A stretch of 64,000 nucleotides of DNA from NCBI RefSeq assembly GCF_988243305.1, contig NZ_OZ547136.1; one strand, written 5' to 3'. The position numbers were made by a program, and so were the translations under genes. The notes under the pieces were generated by a model. That model saw nothing but the letters and a program-made list of their open reading frames with translations. It searched no databases and was not told the origin of the DNA. Shown here in pieces: positions 1-45,864 of this stretch (its first letter is position 1; each line of letters opens with the position of its first letter).

Positions 1-1270
1 AGGAGCGCAGGTTAAAGCGCCAGTCGGCAAAGGTCATGCTGATGCCATCGGTGCGATCCACCGCCAGCGCCTCGCGGCTAAAATGCTGTTCGACGCGGTT
101 AATCGCCTCAACGGGTTGTGACAGTTTGCTGTTGATCTCACCGCTTGCCGGGAATGCCGCCATCCGGTCGCGCACCAGTTCGCCCAGCGTTTTTCCTTTC
201 AGGCACACCAGTTCGGCGACCAGCAGCCACGGGATCATGCCGCTGTCGCAGTAAGCGAAATCACGGAAGTAATGGTGGGCGCTCATTTCGCCACCGTAGA
301 TGGCGTCTTCCTTGCGCATACGTTCTTTAATAAAGGCGTGTCCGTTTTTCGACATCACCGGCGTGCCGCCAGCGGCAGTCACCACATCAACGGTATTCCA
401 GGAGAGACGTGGATCGTGGATGATCTTCGCGCCGGGATTTTTTTCGAGGAACGCTTCTGCCAGCAGGCCGACAATGTAGTAGCCTTCGATAAACTGCCCT
501 TTTTCGTTAAACAGGAAGCAGCGGTCAAAATCGCCATCAAAGGCAATGCCCATATCCGCGCCGTGTTTGATGACCGCATTGCGGGTGTCGTCGCGGCATT
601 CAGGCAGCAGCGGGTTAGGAATACCGTTGGGGAAATTGCCGTCCGGTGTGTTGTGTACTTTGATTAATTCCACCGGCGCGCCGAGGGCTTTAAAGCGGGC
701 TTCGATGGCGTCAACTACCGGACCCGCTGCGCCGTTCCCGGAGTTGATCACCAGCTTGAGCGGCGTGAGATTTTTGACATTGATATAACCGAACAGGTGA
801 TCAACGTAAGCGTCACGCAGGTTGATTTGCTGATAGCGACCGCGTTTGGTTTCATCGACGAGAGGAAAGTTGTTGGCTTCAGCCAGACGCTGGATGTCGC
901 GCAGTCCGGTATCACCGCTGATCGGGCGAGCCCCTTCGCGCACCAGCTTCATGCCGTTGTAATCCATCGGGTTATGGCTGGCGGTAACTTCAATGCCGCC
1001 ATCCACACCGAGATGGAACGTGGCGAAATAAATCTCTTCGGTGCCGGACATGCCAATATCCAGCACGTCGACGCCCGCATCCTGTAAACCTTTCGCCAGC
1101 GCCAGTTTTAAGGTTTCGCTGGTGAGGCGGACATCACCGCCTAACACAATGGTTTTCGGTTTGAGAAATTCGCCATAAGCGCGACCAATGCGCCAGGCAA
1201 TATCTTCATTCAGTTCTTCGCCTAATTTTCCACGAATATCATAGGCTTTAAAGCAGGTTAATTTTTTCAT
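1..1270 (-). CDS. cpsG: Phosphomannomutase (colanic acid GDP-mannose pathway); C-terminal part lies outside the window
   Basis: Minus-strand reading frame open to the window edge; start ATG at 1270 translates to [15 protein letters not shown]... with the phosphohexomutase motif TASHNP. Absent from the ORF track because there is no stop in the window. Confidence 0.9.
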
Positions 1271-1360
1271 GTCGTTACCCTTTTTCAGGCAATAGTTGGC
1301 CCTGACCGAAGCGGCCAATTTTGTTTTTGTCGTTATTTACACCGCGGTTTCGCATTCATT

Positions 1361-1549
<189 letters not shown>

Positions 1550-1550
1550 T

Positions 1551-2996
1551 TTACACCCGTCCGTAGCGATCCGCGAAGCGCACCACATCATCCTCTTCGA
1601 GATAAGAGCCGGAGCGCACTTCAATTAAATCGAGCGGAATTTTCCCCGGGTTTTCCAGGCAATGCGTCGCCCCCAGCGGAATATAAATGGACTCGTTTTC
1701 ACCAAGCAGTTTGATATCACCGTCGATAGTGACTTTTGCCGTTCCCGCGACCACCACCCAGTGTTCCGCGCGGTGATGGTGCATCTGTACCGACAAGCCC
1801 TCGCCCGGTTTCACGGTGATGCGTTTCACCTGGTAGCGGTCGCCCGCGTCGATAGAGTCATATTTGCCCCACGGACGATACACTTCGCGATGCACCCGAT
1901 GCTCATGGCGACCATCGGCTTTGATCTGCTCGACCACTTTTTTCACATCCTGCACCGCGTTACGGTCGGCAATCAGCACCGCATCTTTGGTCTGCACCAC
2001 TACCAGATCTTTCACCCCGACGGTGGTGACCAGGCCAGATTCGGCGTACACATAGCTGTTTTCAGTTTTGTGATTAATCACATCACCGTGGCAAACGTTG
2101 CCCTCGGCGGTGTGGGCGCTGATCTCCCATAATGAAGACCAGGAACCGACATCGCTCCAGCCCGCATCCATCGGCACCACAACGGCATCTGCCGTACGTT
2201 CCATGACCGCGTAATCCACCGACTCTTCCGGGCAGGCCAGAAACGCTTCTTCATCCACGCGAATAAAATCGAGATCCGGATCGACGGCGCTCATCGCTTG
2301 TTCACAGGCGTCGAGAATATCCGGGCGATATTTTTTCAGTTCTTCGAGATAGCGTCCGGCGCGGAACAGGAACATGCCGCTGTTCCAGTAATATTCGCCG
2401 CTTGCCACATAGGCCTGGGCGGTTTCCAGATTCGGTTTTTCGACAAACTGCGCCACTTCAAAGGCCACCGTATCCTGCTCACCCGCAGATACTTCACCGC
2501 GACGAATATAGCCATATCCGGTTTCAGGTAGATCCGGCACAATGCCGAAGGTCACCAGCTTGCCCGCTTCGGCATATGGCATGGCATTACGCACGGCGGT
2601 GCGAAAAGCGTCTTCATCGGCAATCACATGATCCGCCGCCAGCACCAGCATTAACGGGTCGCTCTCCGGGCTATGACGTTTTGCCGCCAGCGCCGCCAGC
2701 GCCGCCAGCGCAATGGCAGGTGCAGTGTTACGCCCTGCCGGTTCGAGAATAATGTTCTCGGTGAGTTTGTTCAGTTGGCGCAGCTGTTCCGCGACAATAA
2801 AGCGGTGCTGCTCATTGCAAATCACCACCGGGCTTTCGCACTCTACGCCTTTCAGGCGGCAGATGGTGGTTTGCAGCATGGTGAGATCGCCTTTCAGGCA
2901 TAAAAACTGCTTGGGGTAAAGTACGCGGGAAAGCGGCCATAAGCGGCTACCGGAGCCACCTGCCATCACAACTGGATAGAGTTTCGACTGCGCCAT
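1551..2996 (-). CDS. cpsB: Mannose-1-phosphate guanylyltransferase
   Basis: 481-aa [27 protein letters not shown]... with nucleotidyltransferase N-terminus and cupin-like C-terminus; position between cpsG and wcaI. Confidence 0.95.
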
Positions 2997-2998
2997 AA

Positions 2999-4222
2999 TT
3001 ATCCCCGAATATCATTTATAAATTGACGTAACACGTTCTCTTTATCGAGCGTGCGTTCGGCATATTCACGTGCCACCGTGTTGTGTTTGGGCAGCAGAAG
3101 CGCCTGACGGATCCCCGCCACCAGCGCCTCGACCGATTCCGGTTCTACGCAAACCGCAATTCCCGGAAAGGTTTCGCAAAGCTGCCCCAGTTCTGTGTGG
3201 GCTTCCGCGGTAATCACCGCGTTACCGCCTACCGCCAGAATATTGGTCAGTTTCGACGGCAATACGGCATCTGCCGCGCCGCGTTTTTGCACCACCAGAT
3301 GGCAATCGCCCATCTTCAGCAGTGCGGGTAAAGCGTCATACGATTGCAGCGGGAAAAATTGCATGTTGCGCAGTCCACGCTGCTGCGCCATTTTTTCCAG
3401 CCGCGCTTTGCCGCCGCCCTGCCCGACAATGGCAAAAATCAGCGGTTCATCGCGCAGGAGATCGGCAGCTTCAATAACGTTTTCCAGCCCCTGCTTTTCA
3501 CCAATATTGCCGGAGTAAAGAATGATTTTTTTGTTATCCGGCAGGCCAAGCTGGTTACGAAGAGCGTCAACATCGGCATCTGCAACATGCTGAAAACGGG
3601 CAATTTCCGACCAGTTGGGGAAGAAGATGACGTTTTCCGCCGCCACGCCTTTTTCGATGGCTTTATTCATCATCGAACGCGAAATCGTGGAGACGTTATC
3701 GACGTTATGCAGTCCGCTACGTTCGAACGCCGTTGCCAGCTGTGCCACTTTGCCGCCTTTGCCTTTTCCGGCAAGGCCCAGCCCCAGCATGGCGTCCACT
3801 TCGTAATCCTGAATATGCAGCACGGTACGCGCACCAGAGAGTTTCGCCAGCAGGCGCATTCCCGGCGTGCAAAACAGCGTTGGCACCACGCCAATAATGC
3901 GATCCGGCTTCCAGCGACGTTGCGCCATCAACGGGAAAAAACTGCTGACGGCAAAACTGCCGAGATGTAACAGGCGTTTCAGGGTGCTCGGCTGTTTTGG
4001 CACGTACAGCGGGCAGCGCCACACCGTAGCGGCCCCCTCTTCTCGTTTGTATCGCCAGGCGGAATAGTTCTCGCCCACCTGCCACTGCGGGTAGTAAGGT
4101 GGTGCGGTAATGACCCGCACCTCATGACCTTGTGCCGCCAGCCATTCCACCATCTCGCCGGTGTATTTGCCGATGCCGGTTAACTCCGGCGAGTAGTTAA
4201 TGCCGTAGACCAGTATTTTCAT
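2999..4222 (-). CDS. wcaI: Colanic acid biosynthesis glycosyltransferase
   Basis: 407-aa ORF in the colanic acid gene order; GT-B-type glycosyltransferase. Confidence 0.9.
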
Positions 4223-4701
4223 AATCCGGGTACTCCGGCACGCTTCTCAGCGAGAAAATAGGCGCGGCTGTTAGCGTGAACATCGTTACTGGCGAGCAGC
4301 GCGTCCGGCGTCAGCCAGCGGTAATCGTCATGCTGCTCATCCGGCAGTATCAGATCTTCTTCAGCGACTCTGAAGCGAAAACCGAGCACCACATAGTGAG
4401 TGGTGAAATCCGTGCCGGAGAAGTTATCGTCATAAAAGTGCTGCCAGACACCGTAAAACTGGCCTGCTGTTATCGGCAGACGCAGCCCCAGTTCCGCCAT
4501 CGTCAGCCGCTCGAATGCGGCTTCCAGCGTTTCGTCTTTCTGCACGCGCCCTCCCGGCACAAACCAGTAACCCTGCGCCGGGCGGTTGGTTCTTTTGCCA
4601 AGCAGAAACTCGCCGCGACTGTTCTCGACAATAAAGTCGAGAGAGACAAGCGGGGTGGAGCGCACTACCGTGGCAAAGTCTTCCTGACGTAAAAACATCA
4701 T
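4219..4701 (-). CDS. gmm: GDP-mannose mannosyl hydrolase (Nudix)
   Basis: 160-aa ORF; 4-bp overlap with wcaI; position between fcl and wcaI. Confidence 0.9.
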
Positions 4702-5666
4702 TACCCCCGAAAGCGGTCTTGATTCTCAAGGAACCACTGGTAAGTGCTGGCAAGCCCCGCTTCCAGTGAGATTTCGTGATACCAGCCAAGCTGATGCAGG
4801 CGCGTCACATCCAGCAGTTTGCGCGGCGTGCCATCCGGTTTGCTGGCATCAAAAACCACCCGGCCTTTGTAACCCACCACTTTGGCGATGGTTTGCGCCA
4901 GCTCGCGGATAGTGCAGTCAACGCCCGTGCCGACGTTAATGTGCGACAACATCGGCTGGGTGTTCTCCAGCCAGACTTCATGCGCCAGCTCCATGACATG
5001 AATGCTCGCCGCCGCCATATCATCGACGTGCAGAAATTCGCGCATCGGTGTACCGCTGCCCCATACCACCACGTCCGGCGCATTCTGTGCCGTCGCCTCG
5101 TGGAAGCGACGCAGCAATGCTGGGATCACATGCGAATTACTCGGGTGGAAGTTGTCGTGTGGCCCGTACAGGTTGGTCGGCATGACTGAGCGGTAATCGC
5201 GTCCGTACTGGCGGTTGTATGATTCGCACAGTTTGATCCCGGCGATTTTGGCAATAGCATAAGGCTCGTTAGTCGGCTCCAGCGTGCCCTGCAACAACTC
5301 GCTTTCTGCCATCGGCTGTTTTGCCAGTTTCGGGTAGATGCAGGACGATCCGAGAAACAGCAGTTTGTTCACGTCGTTCTGATGCGCGGCGTGAATGATG
5401 TTGCTCTCAATCATCATGTTCTGGTAGATGAAATCCGCCGGATAGGTGTTGTTGGCAACAATGCCGCCCACTTTCGCCGCCGCCAGATAGACCTGGTCAA
5501 TACGTTCGCTGGCAAAGAAATCATGCACGGCGCGGCTGTCCAGCAGGTTCAGCTCGTCGCGGGTGCGTAATACCAGTTCCACATCACCGCGCTGTTCGAG
5601 CTGCCGCCTGATGGCAGAACCGACCATCCCGCGATGGCCAGCGATAAAAATGCGTTGTTTACTCAT
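4701..5666 (-). CDS. fcl: GDP-L-fucose synthase
   Basis: 321-aa [24 protein letters not shown]... with NAD(P)-binding Rossmann N-terminus; follows gmd. Confidence 0.95.
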
Positions 5667-5668
5667 GC

Positions 5669-6790
5669 TTATGACTCCAGCGCGATCGCCACGTCGTAGC
5701 CGTGAGATTTCAGCAGAGAGTGTTTTTTCGCCGCTTCGAGGTCATTAGCCACCATTTCAGACACCATCTCTCTGAGGGTGATTTCCGGTTTCCAGCCCAG
5801 TTTTTCGTGCGCTTTGGTCGGGTCGCCGAGCAGCGTTTCAACTTCTGCCGGACGGAAGTAACGCGGGTCAACGGCGATAATCACATCACCCGGTTTAACG
5901 CCCGGCGCGTCATGCCCGGTGACGGAAACCACAATGCCCTTCTCTTCAACACCCGTGCCTTCAAAGCGCAGTTTGATGCCCAGCTGTGCTGCCGCCATTT
6001 CCACGAACTGACGTACGGAGTACTGAACGCCGGTAGCGATAACAAAATCTTCCGGCTGTTCCTGTTGCAGCATCATCCACTGCATTTTTACGTAGTCTTT
6101 GGCATGGCCCCAGTCACGCAGGGAATCCATATTGCCGAGGTACAGACACGACTCCAGCCCCTGGGCGATGTTGGCGATTGCGCGGGTGATTTTGCGGGTA
6201 ACGAAGGTTTCACCGCGGCGCGGGGATTCATGGTTGAAGAGAATACCGTTACAGGCGTACATGCCGTAGGATTCGCGGTAGTTAACGGTGATCCAGTAGG
6301 CGTACAGTTTGGCGACCGCATACGGAGATCGCGGGTAGAACGGCGTGGTCTCTTTCTGCGGAATTTCCTGCACCAGACCATACAGTTCAGAGGTGGAAGC
6401 CTGATAGAAACGAGTTTTCTTTTCCAGACCGAGGAAGCGGATCGCCTCCAGCAGGCGCAGCGTACCCATCGCGTCGACGTCAGCGGTATATTCTGGTGAC
6501 TCAAAAGAGACCGCAACGTGGCTCATTGCGCCCAGGTTGTACACTTCATCCGGCTGTACTTCACGCAAAATGCGCGTCAGGTTAGAGGTATCACTCAGGT
6601 CGCCATAATGCAGATGGAATTTCGGGTTGCAGGTGTGCGGATCCTGATAAATGTGATCCACGCGCTCGGTGTTGAATGACGATGCGCGACGCTTAATACC
6701 ATGCACCTCGTAACCTTTTTCCAGCAGAAACTCTGCCAGGTAAGAACCGTCTTGTCCGGTTACACCGGTGATGAGAGCGACTTTTGACAT
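5669..6790 (-). CDS. gmd: GDP-mannose 4,6-dehydratase
   Basis: 373-aa [34 protein letters not shown]... short-chain dehydratase signature. Confidence 0.95.
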
Positions 6791-6815
6791 GTCTTATTCC
6801 TCTGTATTTTTGAAT

Positions 6816-7364
6816 TTATTCAGTTTCAACGCGTTCGCGTATCACCACTGCGGGATTCCCCCGGCAAACCACATTTGCCGGAAGCGATTTAAAAACACTG
6901 CTTCGTGCACCCACGACGGTGCCGTCGCCGATTGTGACGCCTGGGGCAACAAAGACATCGGTTGCCAGCCAGCATTTCTCGCCAATCACAATAGGCGTGG
7001 CGTTAATGGTGAAATGTTGACTTGCATGGTCGTGGCTACCGGTGCATAAATAACTTTTTTGCGATATCACCGAATGTGCGCCAATGGTTATTTCACCGAG
7101 GGTATATAAATTGACGTCATCGCCGACCCACGCGTAATCACCTAAGGTTAATTTCCACGGATAGGTAATTTTTACTGACGGACGAATAACTACGTTTTTT
7201 CCTATTTTTGCTCCGAATAAACGTAATAAAAAAGCCCGCCAGCGATACAATACTTGTGGCGACCAGGCAAATATTGTTGCCTGTACTGCCCACCATAATT
7301 GCACTTTAATAGCGTTGCCGCCCCGGAACCCTTTCGGCACCGAGAAACCGCTTAAATCTTGCAT
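6816..7364 (-). CDS. wcaF: Colanic acid biosynthesis acetyltransferase (hexapeptide-repeat)
   Basis: 182-aa ORF with left-handed beta-helix hexapeptide repeats; cluster position. Confidence 0.9.
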   Translation of the reverse strand: MQDLSGFSVPKGFRGGNAIKVQLWWAVQATIFAWSPQVLYRWRAFLLRLFGAKIGKNVVIRPSVKITYPWKLTLGDYAWVGDDVNLYTLGEITIGAHSVISQKSYLCTGSHDHASQHFTINATPIVIGEKCWLATDVFVAPGVTIGDGTVVGARSSVFKSLPANVVCRGNPAVVIRERVETE

Positions 7365-7379
7365 TGGTTTTCCTTATAT

Positions 7380-8126
7380 TCAGACTTTGTTATATAAGGC
7401 TTTCGTCTTTGAGGTAGTACGTTGGCGTAAATGCCAGGATAATTCAGCCCAAAAGCCAGGCACATGTAATATTTGTCGTTGGACTTTTTTCGCGTCAGCA
7501 CACAATTCCATATTATTGGTGGTAGATACCCCACCCATGGAAAATTCAGACACCAGGCCATTGAGTTTTTTAAATGCATAACCGGCTTTATACATTTTGG
7601 CTGCCAGCGCGTAGTCGGAAGAAACTTTATATTCCAGGTCATAACGCCATTTTTTCAAGCCGGATACAGGGAAAAATATCGCCTGATGACTGGCGGGCAG
7701 GCTGTGATAAATATACCAGCCCGGTTTGGCGCTACGTTTAATTTTATGCCCGTCGCCAAAATCCAGCAGCGCATCGCCGGTGATCATCACGTTATCTTTT
7801 TGCATTTTTAACTTACGGACAAAATTTGCGGCATTCTGATGAAAAATATCGCCCGAATTGAGAAACAACGCGAACTTGCCTTGTGCCATCGCAATGCCTT
7901 TGTTCATGGCGTCGTAGATACCGTTATCTGGCTCGCTGACAAAGCGTAGGTTAAAGATACCATTGAGATTTTCCAGATACTCACGGGTGCCGTCGTTGGA
8001 ACCGCCATCGACAACAATCCATTCGAAGCTGATATCTTCCACCTGCGCCAGATGCGCCAGCGAGGCATGTGTTTTGACTATCCCTTCGAGGTTACGAAAC
8101 GCGACAGTGATTATGCTAAGCAACAT
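7380..8126 (-). CDS. wcaE: Colanic acid biosynthesis glycosyltransferase (GT2)
   Basis: 248-aa ORF; cluster position. Confidence 0.9.
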
Positions 8127-8136
8127 GTTCTTATTC

Positions 8137-9354
8137 TTACCTCGTAATATTTAACGCTTTTCGCAAAATAAACGGACAGACGATTAAAAATGCATATTCC
8201 GGGCTAAATATCGAACCGGTAAAAAACAGCGATACCGGAGTAAAAAGATATAATTGCACGCGAAAATTGCGGTTATCACCAAAAGCGTTGATCATCATTT
8301 TTATCACTTTCCCCATGTACCACAGCGATAAAAACACTGCGAACCAGGAAAAATAAATAATCAGCAGATACAAACCATTGTCTATGGTTTTTCCGACATC
8401 CGCACCGTTAAATATTCCGAATGATGCGACATATTCATAAAGTGAGCCAAATCTGACTACACCGTCAATATGGGTCAAAGAATAACCGACCATCACCAGC
8501 GGACCGACAATACGATAATACGATGACGATCCTTCCGTGCCTAAATCACCCAGACGGGTGGAAATATAAGGAAATGCAATTACCACACCAACCAGGAATA
8601 CAGCCAGAGAAATCAATGCTAACGGTAACTTTTTCTTAATCGCCTCTTTATTCAGATATTGAAATGCCCACTCCAGCAAATAAAACAGGATAAAGGTCAT
8701 AACCCCTGAAAACGATCCGGATAATATTATCCCTGCGAGAATCATAGCATCGGTTTTAGGGGTTTTGATACCAAACTGTTTGATGCTGAGCCAAATTGAG
8801 ATTAATGCCAGAGCGAAAAATGCCGGTTCGAAATAAAGTGCTGTCGTGCGCTTGCCGCCGAATTTGATGAAATTCAGCACATAGCTGTTGCTGTAAATCA
8901 GATATTTCGAAATCGATTCCATAATACTGCTGCCGCCGGTGAGGATAATTTGCGCCATCTCCACCGCCGCCAGCGCCACCACCAACCCGACCACCAGATA
9001 AAAGAAACGTAATATCTTGCGATGGTTGTGTGGCGAAATCGTTTTAAAGCGAATACTCCACACCATGCCAATAATGATCACAATATAGACAAACAGCATG
9101 GTTGAAGTGACGTATTTACTGGCATCCAACGACTGACCAAACAGGTAGTTAAACGCCGTGAGTCCCGCGCCAATCCCCAGGGCAATCATTAATTTTTTAA
9201 CGCTGATGCGCTCTAAAAACAGCAGCAGCAAGACAGGTAAAAAAGTGACGATGGTGATGGGGAAACTTTCGCCCAGCTGGGCGATTTTGACGTTAACCAG
9301 CAGGTAAATCAGCGGCAGCAGCAGGTAGCTACAGATTCTGATAGAAGTTGACAT
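8137..9354 (-). CDS. wcaD: Colanic acid polymerase (Wzy-like, polytopic membrane protein)
   Basis: Track ORF is 429 aa; trimmed to the internal Met giving [15 protein letters not shown]... (405 aa). Highly hydrophobic. Overlaps the wcaC 3' end. Confidence 0.85.
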
Positions 9355-10546
9355 ACTCCTCCAGCATCTGTTGTCCACTGTAGGCGGCGCGGCTGCATTG
9401 GCTGAACTCAGCCAGCGTGGTGCCAAATATCGCCTTCGCGATTTCCGGTTTGCTTAACTGCACCAGTTGCAGCACGTCTTCTTCGCTGACGGTTTTACCG
9501 CCGGATTTTTGCAGCACTTCACGTGCCGCGTCGCTATGGGTGGCAATCACCGGCACGCCAATCGATAGCGCCTCACACAAAATCAGCGGGTAGTTATCGA
9601 CGCGAGAACTGAATACCAGCGCATCCATCTGATTGAGCGCGCTCATCAACTTGCGCTTGTCAGTTTCAAAGCCGTGATTAACCACGTTGCCAGCGGTGAA
9701 CGGCGAGAACTTACCAAAGGTATGCAGTTCGATTTTGTCGCCCAGCGCCATCATCTCGCGTACCAGTTGCTGGTTAGTTTTGCCGTCGTAACGCAGATCA
9801 TGCGCCACCACCGCGATTTTCGGCTTGCCCTGAGTTTCGCGCACCGGAGGCAGGTCCGCCAGAATCGCTTCGGTTGCCATATCAATGCCATTATTGATAA
9901 TCCGGCAACGCCCTGGACCGTACAGACTATTGAAAGCATCAGCCACATGCTGGCTGGGGGAAATAAACTGACAGCCCAGCGCCAGCATCTCACGGAATAA
10001 CTGGCGTTTGCCCGCCACCAGCTGGTGTGCGCGATCAATCTTCACCGGCGGATAGTTATTTAAGGTCGGGCATTTCTGGCAGCCCTTTTTCCAGCCTTCA
10101 CAACCGTCGGTAAAGGCGCAGCGTCCGGTAACGCTCCAGTGATCGTGTAACGTCCAGACCAAAGTGACATTCGGTTTGTGGTTTTTCACCTTTTCGCAAA
10201 AGCGCACCACGCTCTTAAGATTCAACCAGTAGCTGTGCAGCACATGAAAATGCAGGACCACCGGACCCGGTGTGCGAGTAATGGTGCGATATAACTCATT
10301 GAAATTGCCGAACAGATCGCGATTAAACAGACGAAACAGGGCAATGTTCGCCATCGCGGTCATCCGCGGCGTATGTTTGATGACCTGCGGATAGTTCTGA
10401 TGGCTGACGCTCTCTTTGCCGCCTTTGCCGTAACCGTAGACAAAATGTGACGCCAGCCCCTGTTGCAGCGCACGCTGGTGGAGATCTAACGCCACACCTG
10501 CCGCCCCGCCTTCCGCCAGTCGCACATTAAATTGCAGAATATTCAT
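9329..10546 (-). CDS. wcaC: Colanic acid biosynthesis glycosyltransferase (GT4)
   Basis: 405-aa ORF; cluster position. Confidence 0.9.
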   Translation of the reverse strand: MNILQFNVRLAEGGAAGVALDLHQRALQQGLASHFVYGYGKGGKESVSHQNYPQVIKHTPRMTAMANIALFRLFNRDLFGNFNELYRTITRTPGPVVLHFHVLHSYWLNLKSVVRFCEKVKNHKPNVTLVWTLHDHWSVTGRCAFTDGCEGWKKGCQKCPTLNNYPPVKIDRAHQLVAGKRQLFREMLALGCQFISPSQHVADAFNSLYGPGRCRIINNGIDMATEAILADLPPVRETQGKPKIAVVAHDLRYDGKTNQQLVREMMALGDKIELHTFGKFSPFTAGNVVNHGFETDKRKLMSALNQMDALVFSSRVDNYPLILCEALSIGVPVIATHSDAAREVLQKSGGKTVSEEDVLQLVQLSKPEIAKAIFGTTLAEFSQCSRAAYSGQQMLEEYVNFYQNL

Positions 10547-11031
10547 TTAATTACCTTCACTCGCGCTTTTTCTCCCACCACCAGCGCGTTGTCCGGGACA
10601 GAGTCGAGCACCACGCTGCCCGCGCCCACGGTGACGTTGTTACCAAGCGTGATATCACCAAGAATAATGACGTTGGCACCGAGCTCGACGCCGTTGCCAA
10701 TGTGTGGACATGCCATGTTATCGGCACCACGATTGCCGATAGTGACGCCGTGGCGAATGGTGAAATCATCCCCCGCTACCACGTTTTTATTGATCACTAC
10801 GGCGTAACCGTGATGGATAGTGAAACGGCGACCAATGGTTGCGGCTGCCTGGATTTCATAACCGAAAAAGCATTCGGTGATAATGCGATACAGCACCAGC
10901 AGCGGGGCCGCCCAAATATTGTTGAGGACGTTCTTTTTGCGCCACACCGAACAAAAATGAGCGACGCGATAGGCAAGAACCATGCAGCACGGGCGTAAAC
11001 TCCAGCTGTTGGCGCGCAGATCTTCCAGCAT
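10543..11031 (-). CDS. wcaB: Colanic acid biosynthesis acetyltransferase (hexapeptide-repeat)
   Basis: 162-aa ORF; 4-bp overlap with wcaC. Confidence 0.9.
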   Translation of the reverse strand: MLEDLRANSWSLRPCCMVLAYRVAHFCSVWRKKNVLNNIWAAPLLVLYRIITECFFGYEIQAAATIGRRFTIHHGYAVVINKNVVAGDDFTIRHGVTIGNRGADNMACPHIGNGVELGANVIILGDITLGNNVTVGAGSVVLDSVPDNALVVGEKARVKVIK

Positions 11032-11033
11032 CT

Positions 11034-11873
11034 TTAGCGCCCCCGAATACCATCAGCCAGACGTTTGCCGTTACGCACCGACAGCAGCGTCAGCAAAGTG
11101 CGCCAGGTCATGCGTTTATTGCGGATCTGGTAGAGGGTAAACAGCTGATATTTTTTGCTGGCACGGTCGAATTTGTCTTTGTGCTTGCGGTAAAAGTGGA
11201 AGTACCCGGAGAATTTTTTCGGTGACGAGGTGATCTGCATTTCACCGTGATTGATATGCAGGATCTGCGTCGCCTCTTCCACTTTCCACGGTTCGCCATA
11301 CTCCACCACCATCCGCAGGAAGATGTCGTAATCCTGTGCCGCTTTCAGTTCGGTATCAAACAAACACTCTTTGAAACGCCATGCCCAGGTAAAGACCTGA
11401 TTGCCAATGATATTGCGTTTGTAGAACAGGCGGCGTGAATACGGCGATTTGGGATACAGCGGTAAGCTTGCCGGTTGGGAATAGACTTCGCCCTGGCAAA
11501 CGTAATCGTTAGCGTACAAAAAGGCGTGAGTGACCAGTTGCTGTTTATGGGCGAGGAAGACGCTCAGACGGTTGGGGGTCCATTCATCATCATCATCGAT
11601 CCCGGTGATGTATTCCCCTTGCGCCAGCATAATAGCCTGGTTACGTACCGCGCACGCCCCGCTGTTAATGTCGTTGTGAATGTAGGTAATACGCGGATCG
11701 TTGAGGGCGGTGACGTACTGTTGCAGTTGTTCCCAGGAGGTGGAGCAATCATCCACGACGATCATCTCCCAGTTGTTGTAGTCCTGGCGCAGGACCGATT
11801 TTATCGCCCGAATCGCCAGTTGTTGGCGGTTCCAGGTCGGCATATAGATTGAGATCAGCGGATTGTCTTTCAT
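11034..11873 (-). CDS. wcaA: Colanic acid biosynthesis glycosyltransferase (GT2)
   Basis: 279-aa ORF with GT2 motif IVVDDCS. Confidence 0.9.
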   Translation of the reverse strand: MKDNPLISIYMPTWNRQQLAIRAIKSVLRQDYNNWEMIVVDDCSTSWEQLQQYVTALNDPRITYIHNDINSGACAVRNQAIMLAQGEYITGIDDDDEWTPNRLSVFLAHKQQLVTHAFLYANDYVCQGEVYSQPASLPLYPKSPYSRRLFYKRNIIGNQVFTWAWRFKECLFDTELKAAQDYDIFLRMVVEYGEPWKVEEATQILHINHGEMQITSSPKKFSGYFHFYRKHKDKFDRASKKYQLFTLYQIRNKRMTWRTLLTLLSVRNGKRLADGIRGR

Positions 11874-11908
11874 AGGTTGTTCTCCCGGCTTATGAGCTGG
11901 TTTGCTTG

Positions 11909-11942
11909 CCGGATGCGGCGTGAGCGCCTTATCCGGCCTACG
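11909..11942. repeat. REP palindromic element between wzc and wcaA
   Basis: gccggatgcggcgtgagcgccttatccggcctac, the canonical REP pattern. Confidence 0.7.
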
Positions 11943-11965
11943 GGGCGGTGCGAATGCAGGCGTCG

Positions 11966-14128
11966 TTATTTCGCATCCGACTTATATTCGTATTCGTAAT
12001 AGCCATAATCCTGATACGCGCTGGCGCGACGGAAGATGGAGTTCAGAATCACCCCTTTCACCGGAATACCGTTTTGCTCAAAGCGGCTCAGACTGGTTTC
12101 CACTTCTTTCAATGTGTTGACCGCATAACGCGCCACCATTAACGTGGTTCCGACATGACGACCAACAATTGCCGCATCGGTCACTGCCAGAATCGGCGGC
12201 GTATCAATCAACACCAGGTCATAGTTTTTACTCGCCCAGTTCACCAGTTCGGCAAAGCGTTCGCTCATCAACAGTTCAGAAGGATTTGGCGGTACCTGAC
12301 CGCGCGGGATCAGGTCAAATTTGGCAATAGAGGTCGGTTTAGCAGCGGTAGTAATATCGCCCTGACCAATCAAAATTTCCGACAGGCCATTGACGTTATT
12401 GGTGCCCAACAGCTCGTGGGTGTAGCCTTTGCGCATATCGCAGTCGATCAACAACACCCGTTTATTGGTCTGACTGATCACCGCCGCCAGGTTAGCGCAG
12501 ACAAAGGTTTTACCGATTGACGGGCTAACCCCGGTCATCATCAACACATTGTTCTGCGCCTGCATCATCGCGAAGTGCAGACTGGTACGCAGACTGCGGA
12601 TGGCTTCAATCGCCAGATCGGTTGGATTCCCCACCGCCAGTAGCTGGCTCTGTTTATAGCGTTTAACCCCTTTGATGGTTTTGACGCTATCGCGCGCTTT
12701 CTGCCATTCCGACAGCGGGATGCTGGCATAGACGCTAATACCGTGTTCTTCCAGCACCTGTGGGCTTTCGATGCCGCGATTGAACAACGAGCGCAGCAGC
12801 ACACCCACGATAGAGAGCATCAGGCCGAGGATAATCGCGCCGAGGATAATCAGCCCTTTCTTCGGTTTTAGCACGCCAGGCTGGGTGATTGCCGGGTCAA
12901 CAATGCGCACATCGCCGACGGTGCTGGCCTCGGTGATTTTCAGCTCCTGCTCTTTATTCAGCAGTTGCATATAGACCTGTTGACCAGACTCGACATCGCG
13001 GGTCAGACGGACAATTTCCTGCTGGGTTTTCGGCATCGCCGTTACGCGACCGTTAAGTTTGGCTTTTTCGTCTTCCAGCGCCTGCCGTTTCTCCAGCAGC
13101 GTGCGGTACGCCGGGTGAACTTTGGTGTACAGCTTGGAGATTTCCGCTTCTTTAAAGGTCAGTTCGTTCAACTGCGCGTCGATGTTCACCATCGAATCGA
13201 GCACCGCTTTCGCTTCCAGCGGCAGATCAACAGAATCTTTATCCTGACGGAAGGCATTCAGTTTGTTTTCGGCAACATCGAGGCGGCTACGTACTTCCGG
13301 TAACTGTTGCGCGAGGAAAGCGAGGCTTTTCGACGCTTCCGCCGATTTGCGCTCAATATTTTGTTCCTGATAGTTACGGGCGATGCTGTTAAGAATGTCG
13401 CGGATCTGTTCGCGATCTTCACCGGTATAAGTCAGGCTCAAAACGCCAGCATCTTTGCCGTTCTCCGTTACCGTCAGGCTGTTTTGCAGTTGGTTGATCA
13501 TCCCCAGCGTGGAGTATTTGGTGACGGTAAACTCACTGCCCGGGCTGGCGTGAATGGCTTCAACCATCAGCGTGACGCCTTCTTTTTTCAGCATCTGGCC
13601 CGCTTGCCCACGGGCGCTAAAGCCGCCATCACTGCTCAGGGTGTAGTTTTTGTCATCAAGCACATTAAGCGTAAACACCTGATCCGCCATCTCTTTCGGG
13701 CGGTTAAAGGTGGTCACTTTCACCGTCTCGTTCTGACGTCCCATCAGGCGATCCCAGCCCGCACCGAAAATCGGGAACGTGTTTTTGCTCACCGCAATAT
13801 CGAGGTCGAGATCGTCCACCGTTTTACCAAGCACCAGACGCGAACGAATCAACTGGATCTCGGCGTCCGATGCTGGCGGTTTGTTGGCTAATGCCGAACC
13901 AATGTCCTGCACTAACGAATTGCCGCTGTTTTGCTCGATTTGTACCAGTGCGTCGGCACTATAAATCGGCGTGGCGAAGAAGGTGTAAACCACGGCACAG
14001 AGGGCGAATACGGCAGTGATGCCAATTACCCACCAGCGCGCCTCAATGACGGTGCCAACCAGGCGACCAATATCGATTTCATCACTGCCCGTTACCGGAG
14101 CGGCATGTTGTTTTACTTTTTCTGTCAT
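11966..14128 (-). CDS. wzc: Tyrosine autokinase / polysaccharide co-polymerase
   Basis: Track ORF is 732 aa; trimmed to MTEKVKQHAAPVTG... (720 aa). Walker A-like motif and C-terminal Tyr-rich tail YQDYGYYEYEYKSDAK. Confidence 0.92.
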   Translation of the reverse strand: MTEKVKQHAAPVTGSDEIDIGRLVGTVIEARWWVIGITAVFALCAVVYTFFATPIYSADALVQIEQNSGNSLVQDIGSALANKPPASDAEIQLIRSRLVLGKTVDDLDLDIAVSKNTFPIFGAGWDRLMGRQNETVKVTTFNRPKEMADQVFTLNVLDDKNYTLSSDGGFSARGQAGQMLKKEGVTLMVEAIHASPGSEFTVTKYSTLGMINQLQNSLTVTENGKDAGVLSLTYTGEDREQIRDILNSIARNYQEQNIERKSAEASKSLAFLAQQLPEVRSRLDVAENKLNAFRQDKDSVDLPLEAKAVLDSMVNIDAQLNELTFKEAEISKLYTKVHPAYRTLLEKRQALEDEKAKLNGRVTAMPKTQQEIVRLTRDVESGQQVYMQLLNKEQELKITEASTVGDVRIVDPAITQPGVLKPKKGLIILGAIILGLMLSIVGVLLRSLFNRGIESPQVLEEHGISVYASIPLSEWQKARDSVKTIKGVKRYKQSQLLAVGNPTDLAIEAIRSLRTSLHFAMMQAQNNVLMMTGVSPSIGKTFVCANLAAVISQTNKRVLLIDCDMRKGYTHELLGTNNVNGLSEILIGQGDITTAAKPTSIAKFDLIPRGQVPPNPSELLMSERFAELVNWASKNYDLVLIDTPPILAVTDAAIVGRHVGTTLMVARYAVNTLKEVETSLSRFEQNGIPVKGVILNSIFRRASAYQDYGYYEYEYKSDAK

Positions 14129-14130
14129 TC

Positions 14131-14574
14131 TTATACCTGCTCTGCGTTCAATGCCTGCGCCCACTGGCGGGCAGACCGTTCAAGTAATGTGTACACCGCT
14201 GCAAACGTTTCCCGGCTTTTGCGATACGGATCGGGGATTTCACATTCGTTATCCCAGTGACCAAACAGCATCACTTTGCCGCGCATCTCAGGTGCCATCT
14301 CGCATAAGCGTTCGATATGGCGCTTTTCCATGGTCAAAATCAGGTCGTAGTTGCGACACAGGCGACGGCTGATTTGCCGTGCACAGTGACCTTCCAGAGA
14401 CAGTTGATGTTCTGCGGCGACGCTGATAGCAGTAGGGTCAGCGCCCTTACCGACCAGCGCGCCGAGTCCAGCGGACTCCACTTTCAGCTCCGGGTGATAA
14501 CGTTGCAGTAAGCGTTCCGCCGTCGGGGAACGGCAAATATTGCCGACACAGACAACTAAGATGTTGTTAAACAT
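14131..14574 (-). CDS. wzb: Low-molecular-weight protein-tyrosine phosphatase
   Basis: 147-aa ORF with the CVGNICRSP phosphatase P-loop. Confidence 0.95.
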   Translation of the reverse strand: MFNNILVVCVGNICRSPTAERLLQRYHPELKVESAGLGALVGKGADPTAISVAAEHQLSLEGHCARQISRRLCRNYDLILTMEKRHIERLCEMAPEMRGKVMLFGHWDNECEIPDPYRKSRETFAAVYTLLERSARQWAQALNAEQV

Positions 14575-14579
14575 GACGA

Positions 14580-15719
14580 TTACCAGTTATGAATGTCGCT
14601 GGCTGTATCCGTCATGTAACGGACACCGCTAATAGTTGGCAGCAACTGATTGATCAGACGGTTCCAGCGGGAAACCGGGGCGGTGGTGACATACACCACG
14701 TCATAAGGTTGCAGGCGGAATTCTGTCGCCATCACCAGCGACGTGGCATCGGACATATCCAGCTGGTAGATATTGGCAATCTTGCCGTTACGCCCACCCT
14801 CGCCTTTCAGCGGACGAATGACAAAGATGCCGCTGGCGTTGGAGGTGGTCATGTCGATGCCTTCAGCATTGCCCAGGGCTTCAGTCAGGGTCATGCCGCT
14901 AAAGTCCATTTTCAGGGTGCTCTGTTTTTTAACTTCACCCATCACAAATACTTTCAGATCATCATTACGCGGCACGTAGAGAATATCGCCGGGGTAAAGC
15001 AGTCGGTTCTGATTGAGGTCGCCGTTTTGCATCAGCGCCTGCAAAGAAATGCGTTCTTCACGACCATTGTGTGTTAGCACCACGTTGCGCCAGTCAGCGG
15101 TGTCGGTCAGACCACCTGCGGCGTTGATGGCATCGAGAATGGTCAGTGGTACGTTGGTGATGGCCTGTTGACCGGATTTATTCACCTGACCTGAGATATA
15201 CGCTTTTTGCGAGCGGAAGGCGGCGATATTAACGTCCACCTGCGGGTCAGCGATGTACGTCGCTAAGCGCCCGGTAATATCACTGCGGATTTCAGCGAGC
15301 GTTTTCCCCACCACGTGAACTTTGCCGATATACGGGTAGAACATGGTGCCGTCAGGCTGTACCCAGTTGCCGGTGTCGCTGGAGCTGCGGTACTGACCGG
15401 CTGGCGTGGTAAGTTCCGGGTGATCCCAGACGGTGACATTAAGAACGTCCCCCGGCCCGACGCGATACTGGTAATTCGCGATCTCGCTTTCCAGCGTCAT
15501 ATTGGGGCGCGCTACGTTGGGTCGTGGGCGTAATTGATCAATCAGGCGCGGGGTCAACGGATAAACATTCACCATTTTGTCGAGATCGAAATCAGCGTCC
15601 TGCTGTTTGATGACGTCTTTGCCCATCGTCGACATATTGCTGCCCGGAAGTACTGTGCAACCGCTTATCAAGGTTACTGACACCAATAATGGCATCAATT
15701 TCATTTTGGATTTCATCAT
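14580..15719 (-). CDS. wza: Outer-membrane polysaccharide export lipoprotein
   Basis: 379-aa [24 protein letters not shown]... with signal peptide and lipobox; first gene of the cluster. Confidence 0.95.
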
Positions 15720-15897
15720 TGTTTATTTATCACTTTGGCAGAGTAATTATCCTGTGCACTATTAATAGCAATGTCGCCATGCACATTTACCTTGCAGTTA
15801 ATTGAATAAAAATTTAACTGGCATCAGTCCTAAAAAAATTGATTTCATCCGCAGGCTATTGACAGAATAATTCAGACTGGTCTTTCAGGCATCCAGA

Positions 15898-15909
15898 CAC
15901 GCTACCGCC
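15898..15909 (-). promoter_or_regulatory. ops element (RfaH recruitment site) within the JUMPstart leader upstream of wza
   Basis: Minus strand reads GGCGGTAGCGTG (plus strand cacgctaccgcc), matching the ops consensus GGCGGTAGnnTG, about 180 nt upstream of the wza start. Confidence 0.8.
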
Positions 15910-16377
15910 CCTGGCTTTTTAGCTACCAATACACTGATTTAGCTTAATTTTTAAAACCCTCTCAACATACAGTCGTTGATGAGAAAGGGTTATTGCGGAA
16001 ATTAACTTCCGAATATAAGGTGACATTATGGTAATTGAATATTGGCTCTCCAATAATGCAGGAGGAAGTGTTACAGCTAACGGAATAGCAGGCAAGGTAA
16101 CAATTCGGCAATTGGCTATTTTTAAGAATTATATTAAGTGTCATTCAACATGGTTTTTAGGAGTTTCTTTAGGTTGACAATATTTAATATAGTGTCTCCA
16201 CATGCGATATTTCTTAAATAATGTTTTATTATTACCACTTTTAATTCAGGGATAATGTGAGGTTATAAACCTCAAATAATATGAGATAAATAGTGCTGCA
16301 ACATTGCATTTTTGCCCCGATTTATCCATGATCGAATTGTGACATTTGTCATACAACGAATAGGTTTTGTACTTACT

Positions 16378-17961
16378 ATGGAATGGATTGCCGATCCGTC
16401 TATCTGGGCCGGGTTAATCACGCTGATTGTGATCGAACTGGTCCTCGGCATTGATAACCTGGTCTTTATTGCCATCCTCGCCGAAAAACTACCGCCGAAG
16501 CAGCGCGACCGCGCACGGGTTACCGGGCTGCTGCTGGCGATGTTAATGCGCCTGTTACTGCTGGCGTCAATCTCCTGGCTGGTCACCCTGACACAACCGC
16601 TATTCAGCTTTCGCTCGTTTACCTTTAGCGCCCGCGACTTAATCATGCTGTTTGGTGGTTTCTTCCTGCTGTTCAAAGCCACGATGGAGCTGAACGAACG
16701 GCTGGAAGGGAAAGACAGCAATAACCCCACGCAACGCAAAGGTGCGAAGTTCTGGGGGGTGGTGACACAAATTGTGGTACTGGACGCCATCTTCTCACTC
16801 GACTCGGTGATTACCGCCGTCGGGATGGTCGACCATTTACTGGTCATGATGGCCGCCGTCGTTATCGCTATTAGCCTGATGTTGATGGCCAGCAAGCCGT
16901 TAACGCAATTTGTTAACAGTCACCCGACGATCGTTATTCTCTGCTTAAGCTTCCTGTTGATGATTGGCTTTAGCCTGGTGGCAGAAGGTTTCGGCTTCGT
17001 CATTCCGAAAGGCTACCTGTACGCTGCTATTGGTTTCTCGGTGATGATCGAGGCGCTCAATCAGTTGGCTATCTTTAACCGGCGACGTTTTCTTTCCGCT
17101 AACCAGACACTGCGCCAGCGGACTACCGAAGCGGTAATGCGCCTGCTTAGCGGGCAAAAAGAAGATGCGGAACTGGACGCCGAAACCGCGTCCATGCTGG
17201 TGGATCATGGTAACCAGCAGATCTTTAATCCGCAGGAACGGCGGATGATTGAGCGGGTACTTAATCTTAACCAGCGTACTGTCAGCAGCATTATGACGTC
17301 GCGCCACGATATTGAGCATATCGATCTCAACGCGCCGGAAGAAGAAATCCGCCAGTTGCTGGAGCGAAATCAGCATACGCGGTTGGTGGTTACCGACGGT
17401 GATGACGCAGAAGATTTGCTCGGTGTTGTTCACGTTATCGACCTGCTACAACAGTCACTGCGCGGCGAACCGCTCAACCTGCGGGTGTTGATTCGCCAGC
17501 CGCTGGTGTTCCCGGAAACCTTGCCGTTGTTACCTGCTTTGGAGCAGTTCCGTAATGCCCGCACACACTTTGCTTTTGTGGTGGATGAGTTTGGCTCGGT
17601 GGAAGGGATTGTGACATTAAGTGACGTCACGGAAACTATTGCCGGTAACTTGCCGAACGAAGTGGAAGAGATCGACGCCCGCCATGATATTCAGAAAAAC
17701 GCCGACGGTTCCTGGACGGCGAATGGTCATATGCCACTGGAAGATCTGGTGCAATATGTGCCGCTACCGCTGGATGAGAAACGCGAATATCACACCATTG
17801 CCGGGCTGCTGATGGAATATTTGCAGCGTATTCCAAAACCTGGCGAAGAAGTTCAGGTGGGGGATTATTTGCTTAAAACGTTGCAGGTGGAAAGCCATCG
17901 CGTGCAGAAGGTGCAGATTATACCGCTGCGTAAGGATGGCGAGATGGAGTACGAGGTGTGA
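16378..17961 (+). CDS. yegH: Inner-membrane protein with TerC-like integral domain, CBS pair and CorC/HlyC C-terminal domain
   Basis: Track ORF is 549 aa; trimmed to [18 protein letters not shown]... (527 aa). Confidence 0.9.
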
Positions 17962-18064
17962 TGGTATCGCCATTTTACCCGATGCTGCGTAACGCCTTAT
18001 AACTTCAGCAATGAAGCGATGTCTGTGGTACATGGACATCACAGCGGGGGTGTGGGTCCGGGTT

Positions 18065-18095
18065 GCCAGGGTGGTGGAGATTGAGCCACCCTGGC
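18065..18095. other. Perfect 10-bp inverted repeat (hairpin) in the yegH-asmA intergenic region
   Basis: gccagggtgg / 11-nt loop / ccaccctggc; no flanking T-run. Confidence 0.4.
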
Positions 18096-18194
18096 ACGTT
18101 CACCGGCTTGAGCGTTCCATAGTAGCGAGGAACATCAAGTGAACGGAACAGCCTTCGATCTTACATATTCAGAATATAATGGTGCCGCCACGAA

Positions 18195-18236
18195 CGCCTG
18201 ATGCGACGCTTTACGCGTCTTATCAGGCCTACAGGA
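18195..18236. repeat. REP palindromic element
   Basis: gcctgatgcgacgctttacgcgtcttatcaggcctacagg. Confidence 0.75.
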
Positions 18237-18252
18237 CAGGTCACCTGGTAAA

Positions 18253-20106
18253 CTACATCTTCTCCAGCAACTTCTTCACATCTTTGCCATTGCGGGAATC
18301 TTTATTCCGCTCGGCCCAGTCATTCAGGCGACGTTTCGCTTCGTCCTGTAGATGTTTGCGCAGCAGCTGGTCCACTTGCAGGCTGTAATTGAGTTGCTGC
18401 CAGTTGCCATAAACCCGCAGCGGTACTGGCGTTTCTTTGAGGAAATCAATCAGTTTGCTTTCTCCGTTCCATCCACCCACGACCCGAATATCAAACTGGG
18501 TGTCGCAGGTTTGCTCCGCCAGATTCAACGTACCAGCCCCGGAAAGCGCCAGCACAGGCGATTGACCTTGCATGTCGTTTAACGTCACGACGCCATCCTT
18601 CAACGTCAAATAGGTGGTAAAGCGGTCAAGACGCGTCACGTTATCGAAGTTTTCAGCGGCCTTCACATCACCACCATTACGTTCTACCGCTTGCTGAATC
18701 ATCTGCTGGAAGTTCATCCCTTCCATGCGTGTGTCGGTCATTTCGACATGTGCCTGTCCTTGCCAGTTGTGGCGGAATGCGTCGGCATCTATGTCAGCAC
18801 CGGAGAAATCACCAGCCAGTGACATCTTTCCGGTCAACGAAATCGGATAGTTAAACGCCTTCAGAATGGTGCCTATCTCAACGTTTTCCAGCCGTGGCTG
18901 GAAGTTTATCCGCGGATTTATTGATGTCGCGTCCAGCGTGCCCGGCAGTGAAACCTGTCCACCGTTAAGCTTGCCCTGCAGTTGAGTAATTTCCAGCAAA
19001 CCCGACTTGTTGGTCATTTGCGTGGCAACATCTGTAAAATTCATTCCGCGCCAGCGCACGTTACTGGCCTGCAACAAAATATCAGCCGTAAAGCCTTGCA
19101 GTCCCTGATAGGCCGGTTCATCAATACGCGAAGAAATGACCGGGCGCGGCAACGTTGATTGGCTCTGCCCCTGCTGCGCGGCACCGTTTTCACCGTTCGC
19201 TGTTTCATTAAGCGGGATGAGGTTGTCAAGATTCAGTTGCGGGAATTGCAGTCTCAGCTGCCATTCCGGTTTCTCTGTCAACGTGACCTGTGCTTGCCCG
19301 CTCAGCGTACTGTCATTGGCGGTCAAACTAATTTGGTTAAATGAAAGGCGTTTATGTGACTCCTGCCACTGGGCCTGGAAACTCCCCTGCCCCTGAATAC
19401 CTTGTTTTGGTAAATCTGCACCCTGCAACTGCCAGTTAATTTGTTCAATAGCCGCCGTTAAATCATGCGGATAATCAGAAGCATCTACCGTACCGTTAAG
19501 GGATATCGTGAGATCGCGCTGATCGCGATTAACCCGCCCGGAGAACTCAAATGAGCCACGATGTTGGGGATCTTGTTCCATTTGCAGACGGATATTGCGG
19601 ATTGTCACCTGCTCGTCATCTTCATGCTGGAACACCAGCACGCTGTCCGCCACCTTAAGACTGGATATATCAAACGACCATCCGCGATCGTCTGACAGAT
19701 CCGGCAAGGTATTGTCGCGCGGTGCAACCGGAGCGTCTTCACTGCGCACCGCTTCCGTCTGCGGCGTCAGTTGGATCACTGCCCCTTTTAGCATCACCTG
19801 CTTAACGCTCAGTTGATGACTCAGTAGTGGTAAAAGCGCCACGTCCAGACGCATGTTGTCGGCGCGAACCAGTGGCTGGCTCGCGCCCTGGGCGGTGAGA
19901 GACATTCGCCCGGAGAGGATACTAAGCTGCGGCCAGACGTGCCAACGCAGTGGCCCGTCGAGCTGCAATTGATAACCGCTACGTGCAGCAACTTGCTTGA
20001 CCATATAGTCGCGGAAATCATTCGGATTCACCAGCAACACTAACGCAGATAACCCGGCCACCAGCACGACCAGGAGTATCATCAGCGTCGTCAGAAATCG
20101 TCTCAT
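18253..20106 (-). CDS. asmA: AsmA outer-membrane assembly / lipid transport protein
   Basis: 617-aa ORF with N-terminal membrane anchor MRRFLTTLMILLVVLVAGLSALVLLV. Confidence 0.92.
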   Translation of the reverse strand: MRRFLTTLMILLVVLVAGLSALVLLVNPNDFRDYMVKQVAARSGYQLQLDGPLRWHVWPQLSILSGRMSLTAQGASQPLVRADNMRLDVALLPLLSHQLSVKQVMLKGAVIQLTPQTEAVRSEDAPVAPRDNTLPDLSDDRGWSFDISSLKVADSVLVFQHEDDEQVTIRNIRLQMEQDPQHRGSFEFSGRVNRDQRDLTISLNGTVDASDYPHDLTAAIEQINWQLQGADLPKQGIQGQGSFQAQWQESHKRLSFNQISLTANDSTLSGQAQVTLTEKPEWQLRLQFPQLNLDNLIPLNETANGENGAAQQGQSQSTLPRPVISSRIDEPAYQGLQGFTADILLQASNVRWRGMNFTDVATQMTNKSGLLEITQLQGKLNGGQVSLPGTLDATSINPRINFQPRLENVEIGTILKAFNYPISLTGKMSLAGDFSGADIDADAFRHNWQGQAHVEMTDTRMEGMNFQQMIQQAVERNGGDVKAAENFDNVTRLDRFTTYLTLKDGVVTLNDMQGQSPVLALSGAGTLNLAEQTCDTQFDIRVVGGWNGESKLIDFLKETPVPLRVYGNWQQLNYSLQVDQLLRKHLQDEAKRRLNDWAERNKDSRNGKDVKKLLEKM

Positions 20107-31561: not shown

Positions 31562-31742
31562 AAGAAATCCTTTCTTAGAGAATTATTGAGGTCCGGTATC
31601 ATACCGATTGCAATAATGAAATAAGAGCAAACGAAGAAACTTTCAGAATTAGGCCCGGCGGCGCAGAAAATTTTGCTATTCGCCTCGCAAGAACGGAGAG
31701 CCGTCGATTGACACTAAGGGCGGAGTGACATAATTTCAGGAG

Positions 31743-31878
31743 TGAGGGTTAGGGAGAGGTTTCTCCCTCCCCCTGGTGTTCTTAGTAAGCCTGGAAGCTA
31801 ATCACTAAGAGTATCTCCAGTATGATGACGTGCTTCATCATAACCCTTTCCTTATTAAAAGCCCTCTTCTCCGGGAGA
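31743..31878 (+). ncRNA. sibA: Sib antisense sRNA (antitoxin), copy 1
   Basis: Sigma70-like promoter ttgaca (31708-31713) and taattt (31731-31736); transcript fully covers the ibs ORF on the opposite strand; terminator hairpin gccctcttctccgggagagggttt. Ends approximate. Confidence 0.55.
31772..31831 (-). CDS. ibsA: Ibs type I toxin peptide, copy 1 (19 aa, variant)
   Basis: Minus-strand ORF MMKHVIILEILLVISFQAY with SD-like ggaaagg upstream; E and Q replace hydrophobic/Pro positions seen in the other two copies. Confidence 0.55.
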
Positions 31879-45834: not shown

Positions 45835-45864
45835 GCTGCATTTATTAAGGTTATCATCCGTTTC

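Follow-up and report, generated by a model that had tools for sequence, protein, structure and literature searches.

Described JUMPstart/ops systems

The JUMPstart/ops of the wza leader has already been described, and RfaH loading at this site has already been published. Publications on the JUMPstart of the cps/wza leader go back to the mid-1990s, and RfaH ChIP-seq at this site to 2022; the discovery value of the present element is small. The papers cited for the known wza (cps/wca) JUMPstart-ops are reportedly Hobbs & Reeves 1994 and Stout 1996. The wza JUMPstart-ops of E. coli K-12 and CFT073 is the same locus as the one analysed here.

The ops is a consensus pause, and RNA polymerase halts at U11 (PMC5995543). 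The non-template ops strand forms a small hairpin, which is read by RfaH (PMC5995543). Zuber et al. showed that G4, G5, A7 and G8 are indispensable, that C3 and T6 are important, and that T11/G12 drive the pause (PMC5995543). RfaH opens, binds RNA polymerase, shuts out NusG and inhibits Rho-dependent termination, and its refolded C-terminal domain brings 30S subunits to leaders that have no Shine-Dalgarno sequence (PMC5995543). Lambda nut/put, EAR RNA and the LoaP targets resemble ops in that a cis signal in the leader makes the polymerase terminator-resistant over a long operon. These signals act as RNA, whereas in the case of ops a NusG paralog recognises the non-template DNA in its single-stranded form.

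Hustmyer et al. (2022) found RfaH ChIP-seq signal at the wza ops in CFT073 Δhns ΔstpA, and this signal was gone in ΔrfaH (PMC9765446). The CFT073 table gives GGCGGTAGCGTG at −190 from the wza start, and a sigma-70 peak lay upstream of wza in the Δhns ΔstpA strain (PMC9765446). The operon was silent in wild-type CFT073 grown in rich medium and gave no RNA polymerase signal (PMC9765446). RfaH was proposed to counter-silence H-NS filaments during elongation, and wza–wcaM was considered a "cryptic" target of RfaH that still needs a signal for initiation (PMC9765446). Other literature, PMC3101779 among it, calls colanic acid RfaH/JUMPstart-dependent, and RfaH has been stated to be required for the genes after wzc.

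The O-antigen rfb JUMPstart, downstream of galF, belongs to the same 39-nt family, has an identical ops and also heads a long polysaccharide operon. In the nearest genome it scored 61.1 bits (L003:10361-10399), 23 kb downstream. Its 5′ arm is CTGGT with the loop AGCTGTTAA, whereas the wza JUMPstart has TTGGT and AGCTAAAAA; it lies 74 nt before rfbB, compared with 178 nt before wza. The rfb operon is constitutively transcribed (the wzx transcription unit is active in the wild type), whereas wza is Rcs-dependent (PMC9765446).

The group 1 cps leader of E. coli K30 and Klebsiella has its JUMPstart/ops upstream of wza-wzb-wzc, like the window (the whole 64-kb stretch of DNA analysed here). The group 1 JUMPstart is located between galF and wzi, whereas in the window the element precedes wza. 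According to Rahn & Whitfield 2003, which PMC3101779 cites, K30 is said to carry a stem-loop attenuator after wzc, and RfaH is reportedly needed to read past it.

The JUMPstart/ops element upstream of wza

The window is part of the Escherichia coli chromosome. Its wza–yegH region (801 bp) was matched over at least 80% of its length in 4818 of 5426 complete E. coli genomes, with a best identity of 99.9%. The following features define the locus:

14580–15719, minus strand: wza, which opens the operon; its product shares 100% identity with annotated Wza
15898–15909, minus strand: ops, GGCGGTAGCGTG; 12/12 positions identical to the wild-type ops of RfaH biochemistry; non-template, wza-sense strand
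15898–15936, minus strand: JUMPstart, CAGTGTATTGGTAGCTAAAAAGCCAGGGGCGGTAGCGTG, 39 nt; Rfam RF01707
15911–15929, minus strand: JUMPstart stem-loop, TTGGT (15929–15925) and GCCAG (15915–15911) with a 9-nt loop, after the Rfam structure line
16378–17961, divergent from wza: yegH, from the transferred annotation and the ORF list

The exact search of the whole 64-kb window found a single exact copy of GGCGGTAGCGTG, on the minus strand at 15898–15909, where approximately 0.01 occurrences were expected by chance. A complete JUMPstart, running from 15936 to 15898 on the same strand, has this 12-mer at its 3′ end. The covariance model RF01707 matched the JUMPstart with 57.3 bits (gathering score 35), with an E-value of 5.1e-12 in the 2-kb search and 1.6e-10 in the search of the whole window. 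The alignment was full-length (model positions 1–38 of 38), and the whole-window gathering scan gave the match at 15898–15936 as the only RF01707 match across 64 kb. The stem UUGGU/GCCAG comprises five pairs (U.G, U-A, G-C, G-C and U.G), two of them G.U, and adjoins the ops core on its 5′ side.

Targets of RfaH carry the 12-nt ops GGCGGTAGnnTG on the non-template strand, and here it is present exactly, on the minus strand. Read against the mutational analysis in PMC5995543, the recruitment positions G4, G5, T6, A7 and G8 and the pause positions T11 and G12 are all wild type. The JUMPstart is sense-oriented on the wza strand and lies in the 5′ leader of a polysaccharide operon. Because the wza ATG is at 15719 (15909 − 15719 = 190), the distance to the ATG is 178 nt from the last ops base and 190 nt from the first. 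The ops sequence and the −190 geometry of the window are thus identical to those of the RfaH-bound site in CFT073. Within the 20 nt before the wza ATG (…CCAAAGTGATAAATAAACAATG), no Shine-Dalgarno-like run (GGAG, GAGG or AGGA) was found. A long operon whose first gene has no canonical Shine-Dalgarno sequence is a further property of RfaH targets present at this locus.

This analysis directly observed that the element is present and intact, as well as its strand, its position and its conservation. We are highly confident that it is the JUMPstart/ops of the colanic acid operon (wza–wcaM) of E. coli and that it works as an RfaH loading site. The initial annotation had placed an ops/JUMPstart on the minus strand within 15890–15960, about 180 nt upstream of wza in AT-rich surroundings. 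This span encloses the element at 15898–15936, the exact 12-mer and the RF01707 match lie on the wza sense strand, and the 178 nt measured from the last ops base agree with the proposed distance. The intergenic GC content was 28–40%, compared with 50–59% in the flanking genes, as had been described. A comparison with the JUMPstarts of other polysaccharide operons, which the annotation had proposed as a check, also came out in its favour, with the match to RF01707 and the same context at 79 other loci among the matches listed.

The ops consensus GGCGGTAGNNTG had two matches in the window, compared with 0.07 expected from shuffles. The second match, GGCGGTAGCCTG, is located at 42750–42761 on the plus strand, inside baeS (ORF 41637–43040), on the sense strand and in frame (Gly-Gly-Ser-Leu). 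In the published ChIP, intragenic ops-like sites of this kind showed no RfaH loading, and baeS is absent from the CFT073 list.

Species-representative genomes were scanned for the exact 18-mer GCCAGGGGCGGTAGCGTG, which gave at least 120 loci. The invariance of these 18 nt across species is by construction, because the loci were chosen by the exact match. A JUMPstart-like 5′ half was present in 98 of the 120 matches listed. The other 22 were non-JUMPstart matches; about ten of them lie at an intragenic site conserved among several Enterobacterales, and the remainder are chance matches in unrelated phyla. At the intragenic site, GCCAGGGGCGGTAGCGTG is preceded by CCTTATGGGCATCGGTnACG (L012, L026, L029, L031, L070–L072, L077, L078 and L107), and this perfect ops apparently lies within a large conserved Enterobacterales gene of about 785–888 aa or more.

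The first ORFs after 79 JUMPstarts among the matches listed were compared, and all common Pfam classes were polysaccharide functions. They included 22 Wza-type exporters, 16 RfbB-like dehydratases, 7 initiating sugar transferases, 5 ABC-2 permeases, 4 WaaQ-like heptosyltransferases, 4 flippases and 3 Wzi proteins. The distance from ops to wza was 170–187 nt in 26 loci among the matches listed, and their Wza proteins had 87–100% identity. These 26 loci belong to seven genera, namely Escherichia, Salmonella, Citrobacter, Enterobacter, Cedecea, Atlantibacter and Superficieibacter. The JUMPstart is also present in the colanic-type wza leader of E. coli E69, the K30 prototype (L066 5410–6168), whose Wza N-terminus shares 99% identity with colanic Wza. 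The colanic acid locus is commonly said to be missing from group 1 strains.

Between the start of the JUMPstart and the wza ATG, no differences were seen among four E. coli strains (the window, K-12 and two divergent strains), and SNPs clustered just upstream, at approximately 15940–16000. Compared with K-12, the window had 10 differences in 563 aligned nucleotides, all of them upstream of the JUMPstart, including those in the T-run after the leader hairpin (15953–15955). An 81-mer containing the JUMPstart occurred in 4817 complete genomes, and the neighbouring upstream 81-mer in 3684.

Promoter candidates and conserved leader blocks

Twenty-four wza leaders were aligned, and the mean pairwise identity was calculated per segment. 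The alignment showed conserved islands within a variable background:

15720–15759, minus strand: post-ops block 2, CAGGATAATTACTCTGCCAAAGTGATAAATAAACA, directly before the ATG; identity 0.88
15800–15849, minus strand: post-ops block 1, TTTTTTTAGGACTGATGCCAGTTAAATT…TTAACTGCAAGG; identity 0.72
15916–15936, minus strand: the 21 nt of the JUMPstart outside the search pattern; identity 0.76, compared with 0.33 in the adjacent upstream leader
15937–16061, minus strand: variable leader, with a hairpin at approximately 15950–15998 followed by TTTTAAAAATT; identity 0.33
16025–16052, minus strand: sigma-70-like match TGGAGA-16-CATAAT from the consensus scan; implied start near 16018
16062–16100, minus strand: promoter-like block; identity 0.75, compared with 0.33–0.42 in its flanks
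16067–16095, minus strand: hexamers tentatively assigned within this block, −35-like TTGCCT (16095–16090), a 17-nt spacer and an extended −10 TGT-AACACT (16075–16067)
16121–16140, minus strand: box B, CTTAATATAATTCTTAAAAA, RcsAB-box-like, with the half-site TAAGAAT on the opposite strand; identity 0.84
16150–16180, minus strand: box A, TTGTCAAC..TAAAGAAACTCCTAAAAA, a second RcsAB-box-like sequence (…TCCTA); identity 0.76

On account of its conservation, we favour the block at 16062–16100 as the candidate cps/wza promoter, which would put the start near 16060. The extended −10 is TGC-AACAAT in most other genera. The match at 16052–16025 was the sole wza-strand match in the scan, but it is not conserved outside Escherichia and was rejected as the preferred promoter. 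Both candidates are located upstream of the element (15936). A place for ops within the transcript is indirectly supported by the sigma-70 peak upstream of wza and the RfaH loading at the site in CFT073 (PMC9765446). Where exactly transcription starts, and how large the RfaH effect is in this strain, we infer. Upstream of the candidate promoter lie the two RcsAB-box-like candidates (16121–16140 and 16150–16180); box B was compared with TaAGaatatTCctA, which is reportedly the RcsAB box consensus of Wehland & Bernhard 2000.

The hairpin and T-run at approximately 15950–15998 are terminator-like and were considered as an attenuator upstream of ops, but they are lineage-specific. The TTTTAAAAATT of the window is replaced by GTGTGAAAAATT in K-12 and most E. 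coli and by unrelated sequence in other genera. Since the T-run is absent from K-12 and other E. coli and the hairpin is absent from other genera, a conserved attenuator was rejected. An Rfam "mir-320" match on the same hairpin (18.7 bits, compared with 55.5) was regarded as noise. The cross-genus alignment of the leader showed no conserved ORF. Two minus-strand ORFs in the leader (15919–16095 and 15962–16144) were rejected as coding, because their starts precede both promoter candidates and the segment is the least conserved. A 49-aa "hypothetical protein" is annotated at 16028–16177 on the plus strand in many RefSeq E. coli genomes, antisense to the promoter and RcsAB-box region. This CDS is probably spurious, because its conservation pattern resembles that of DNA sites rather than of coding sequence.

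The two conserved blocks between ops and wza are the only unexplained feature here, and their function is unassigned. Their identities of 0.72 and 0.88 hold across seven genera; among 125 loci, both were found in wza leaders only, and each contains a conserved AGGA. Run on the leader from the JUMPstart down to the ATG, RNAalifold gave −9.5 kcal/mol with no compensatory pairs, so that no leader RNA structure is supported. Judging from the alignment, we suggest with low confidence that the blocks may make up a cis-regulatory element, new to the colanic acid operon, that acts alongside RfaH. If so, they would be the site of a post-transcriptional regulator or a ribosome-recruitment platform for wza, which has no Shine-Dalgarno sequence.

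Operon extent, RfaH loading and alternative explanations

The gene order was obtained by annotation transfer from the nearest genome and from the ORF list. Along the coordinates, the minus strand carries wcaJ′ (cut), cpsG, cpsB, wcaI, gmm, fcl, gmd, wcaF, wcaE, wcaD, wcaC, wcaB, wcaA, wzc, wzb and wza. The operon features are as follows:

1–15719, minus strand: part of the colanic acid operon within the window, wza-wzb-wzc-wcaABCDEF-gmd-fcl-gmm-wcaI-cpsB-cpsG-wcaJ′
11908–11937, minus strand: REP-type palindrome GCCGGATAAGGCGCTCACGCCGCATCCGGC without a U-tract, in the 92-nt wzc–wcaA gap (11874–11965)

The whole operon comprises 20 genes (wza to wcaM) in about 22.5 kb. Its first 15.7 kb are in the window, whose edge lies inside wcaJ; judged by the nearest genome, it runs about 6.8 kb past the left edge of the window to wcaM. 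The initial annotation had proposed RfaH-dependent read-through across an operon of ~14 kb. The read-through agrees with literature reports for the same site (PMC9765446) and is conditional on Rcs and H-NS, whereas the length had to be corrected to ~22.5 kb. Our check thus validates the earlier motif call and its strand logic, corrects the operon length and maps the conserved and variable segments of the leader.

The terminator scan predicted 22 intrinsic terminators within the operon, compared with 19.3 expected, which is no excess. Because of this, we infer rather than see the obstacle that RfaH overcomes, be it Rho, H-NS or the REP hairpin. In the early part of the operon, the wzc–wcaA gap is the sole intergenic gap of appreciable size. 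Its REP palindrome has the position of the K30 stem-loop attenuator, and attenuation by the REP is putative. An algC RNA motif lies within cpsG, inside the operon (Rfam, 77.3 bits), and the REP-derived naRNA4 lies at the cpsB–cpsG junction (Rfam, 72.7 bits); their listed coordinates are 1275–1324 on the minus strand and 1411–1481 on the plus strand, respectively.

The occupancy of the wza ops by RfaH and the molecular mechanism are taken from the literature. In the proposed mechanism, the promoter approximately 120–160 nt upstream would be silenced by H-NS by default and switched on by RcsA/RcsB. Once the promoter has fired, RNA polymerase would enter the leader and pause at ops (U11). The exposed non-template GGCGGTAGCGTG would then form a small hairpin and be recognised by RfaH, which would open, clamp the polymerase in the place of NusG and be retained to the end of the operon. 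Over about 22 kb, the bound RfaH would suppress pausing, Rho-dependent polarity and roadblocks formed by H-NS. Genes that have no Shine-Dalgarno sequence, such as wza, may receive ribosomes with the help of the refolded KOW domain of RfaH.

The RfaH dependence is conditional, because the wild-type operon is silent without induction. Since the promoter is silenced by H-NS and activated by Rcs, RfaH comes into play only once the operon is induced. The picture of H-NS counter-silencing agrees with the AT-rich promoter and leader and with the lower GC content of wcaF–wcaD (42–48%, 6600–9000).

That a motif this short could arise by chance in AT-rich intergenic DNA is suggested by the length of the 12-mer and by nothing more. 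Approximately 0.01 exact copies were expected, the consensus was found twice against an expectation of 0.07, the full 39-nt model had an E-value of 5e-12, and the orthologous site is present in thousands of genomes; the chance of a fortuitous motif is negligible. We consider it very unlikely that the element is a functionally idle relic and that colanic acid expression is set at initiation alone, by RcsAB, H-NS and DsrA. The silence of the operon under standard conditions, the dominance of RcsAB and H-NS control and the number of operon-internal intrinsic terminators, not above chance, are consistent with such a relic. The element and its spacing to wza are nevertheless kept in seven genera, in contrast to the adjacent leader with its identity of only 0.33, and RfaH is physically recruited at the site once the promoter is derepressed (PMC9765446).

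The 5′ half of the JUMPstart may act as an RNA hairpin affecting stability, processing or ribosome access, with or without the ops/RfaH step. Rfam files JUMPstart as a cis-regulatory RNA, and the 5′ 21 nt are conserved (0.76) although the 12-nt ops suffices for RfaH. The 5-bp stem also fits the covariance model. In 93 of the 98 JUMPstarts from other genomes among the matches listed, the 5′ arm retained its potential to pair with GCCAG, with C or U opposite G. Two-sided covariation was absent, and none could be visible, because the search pattern held the 3′ arm constant. No leader structure was supported by RNAalifold, and the signal recognised in vitro is ops in non-template DNA (PMC5995543). 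We regard such an RNA role as rather unlikely. Loading of RfaH at the wza JUMPstart/ops is the reading that we prefer.

Beyond the wza leader, the window differs from the nearest genome, 2014C-3075, on the far side of yegH. That genome has a RelE/ParE toxin and HTH antitoxin pair between yegH and asmA (L002 18036–18654). The pair is absent from 17962–18252 of the window, where asmA is located at 18253–20106, with an offset of 454 bp. Further RNAs scored above the Rfam gathering scores and are standard for E. coli, namely three tandem Sib antitoxin RNAs (opposite ibs toxins), the CyaR sRNA and a TPP riboswitch:

31708–32513, plus strand: Sib RNAs, Rfam
45863–45948, plus strand: CyaR, Rfam
62126–62222, minus strand: TPP riboswitch, Rfam
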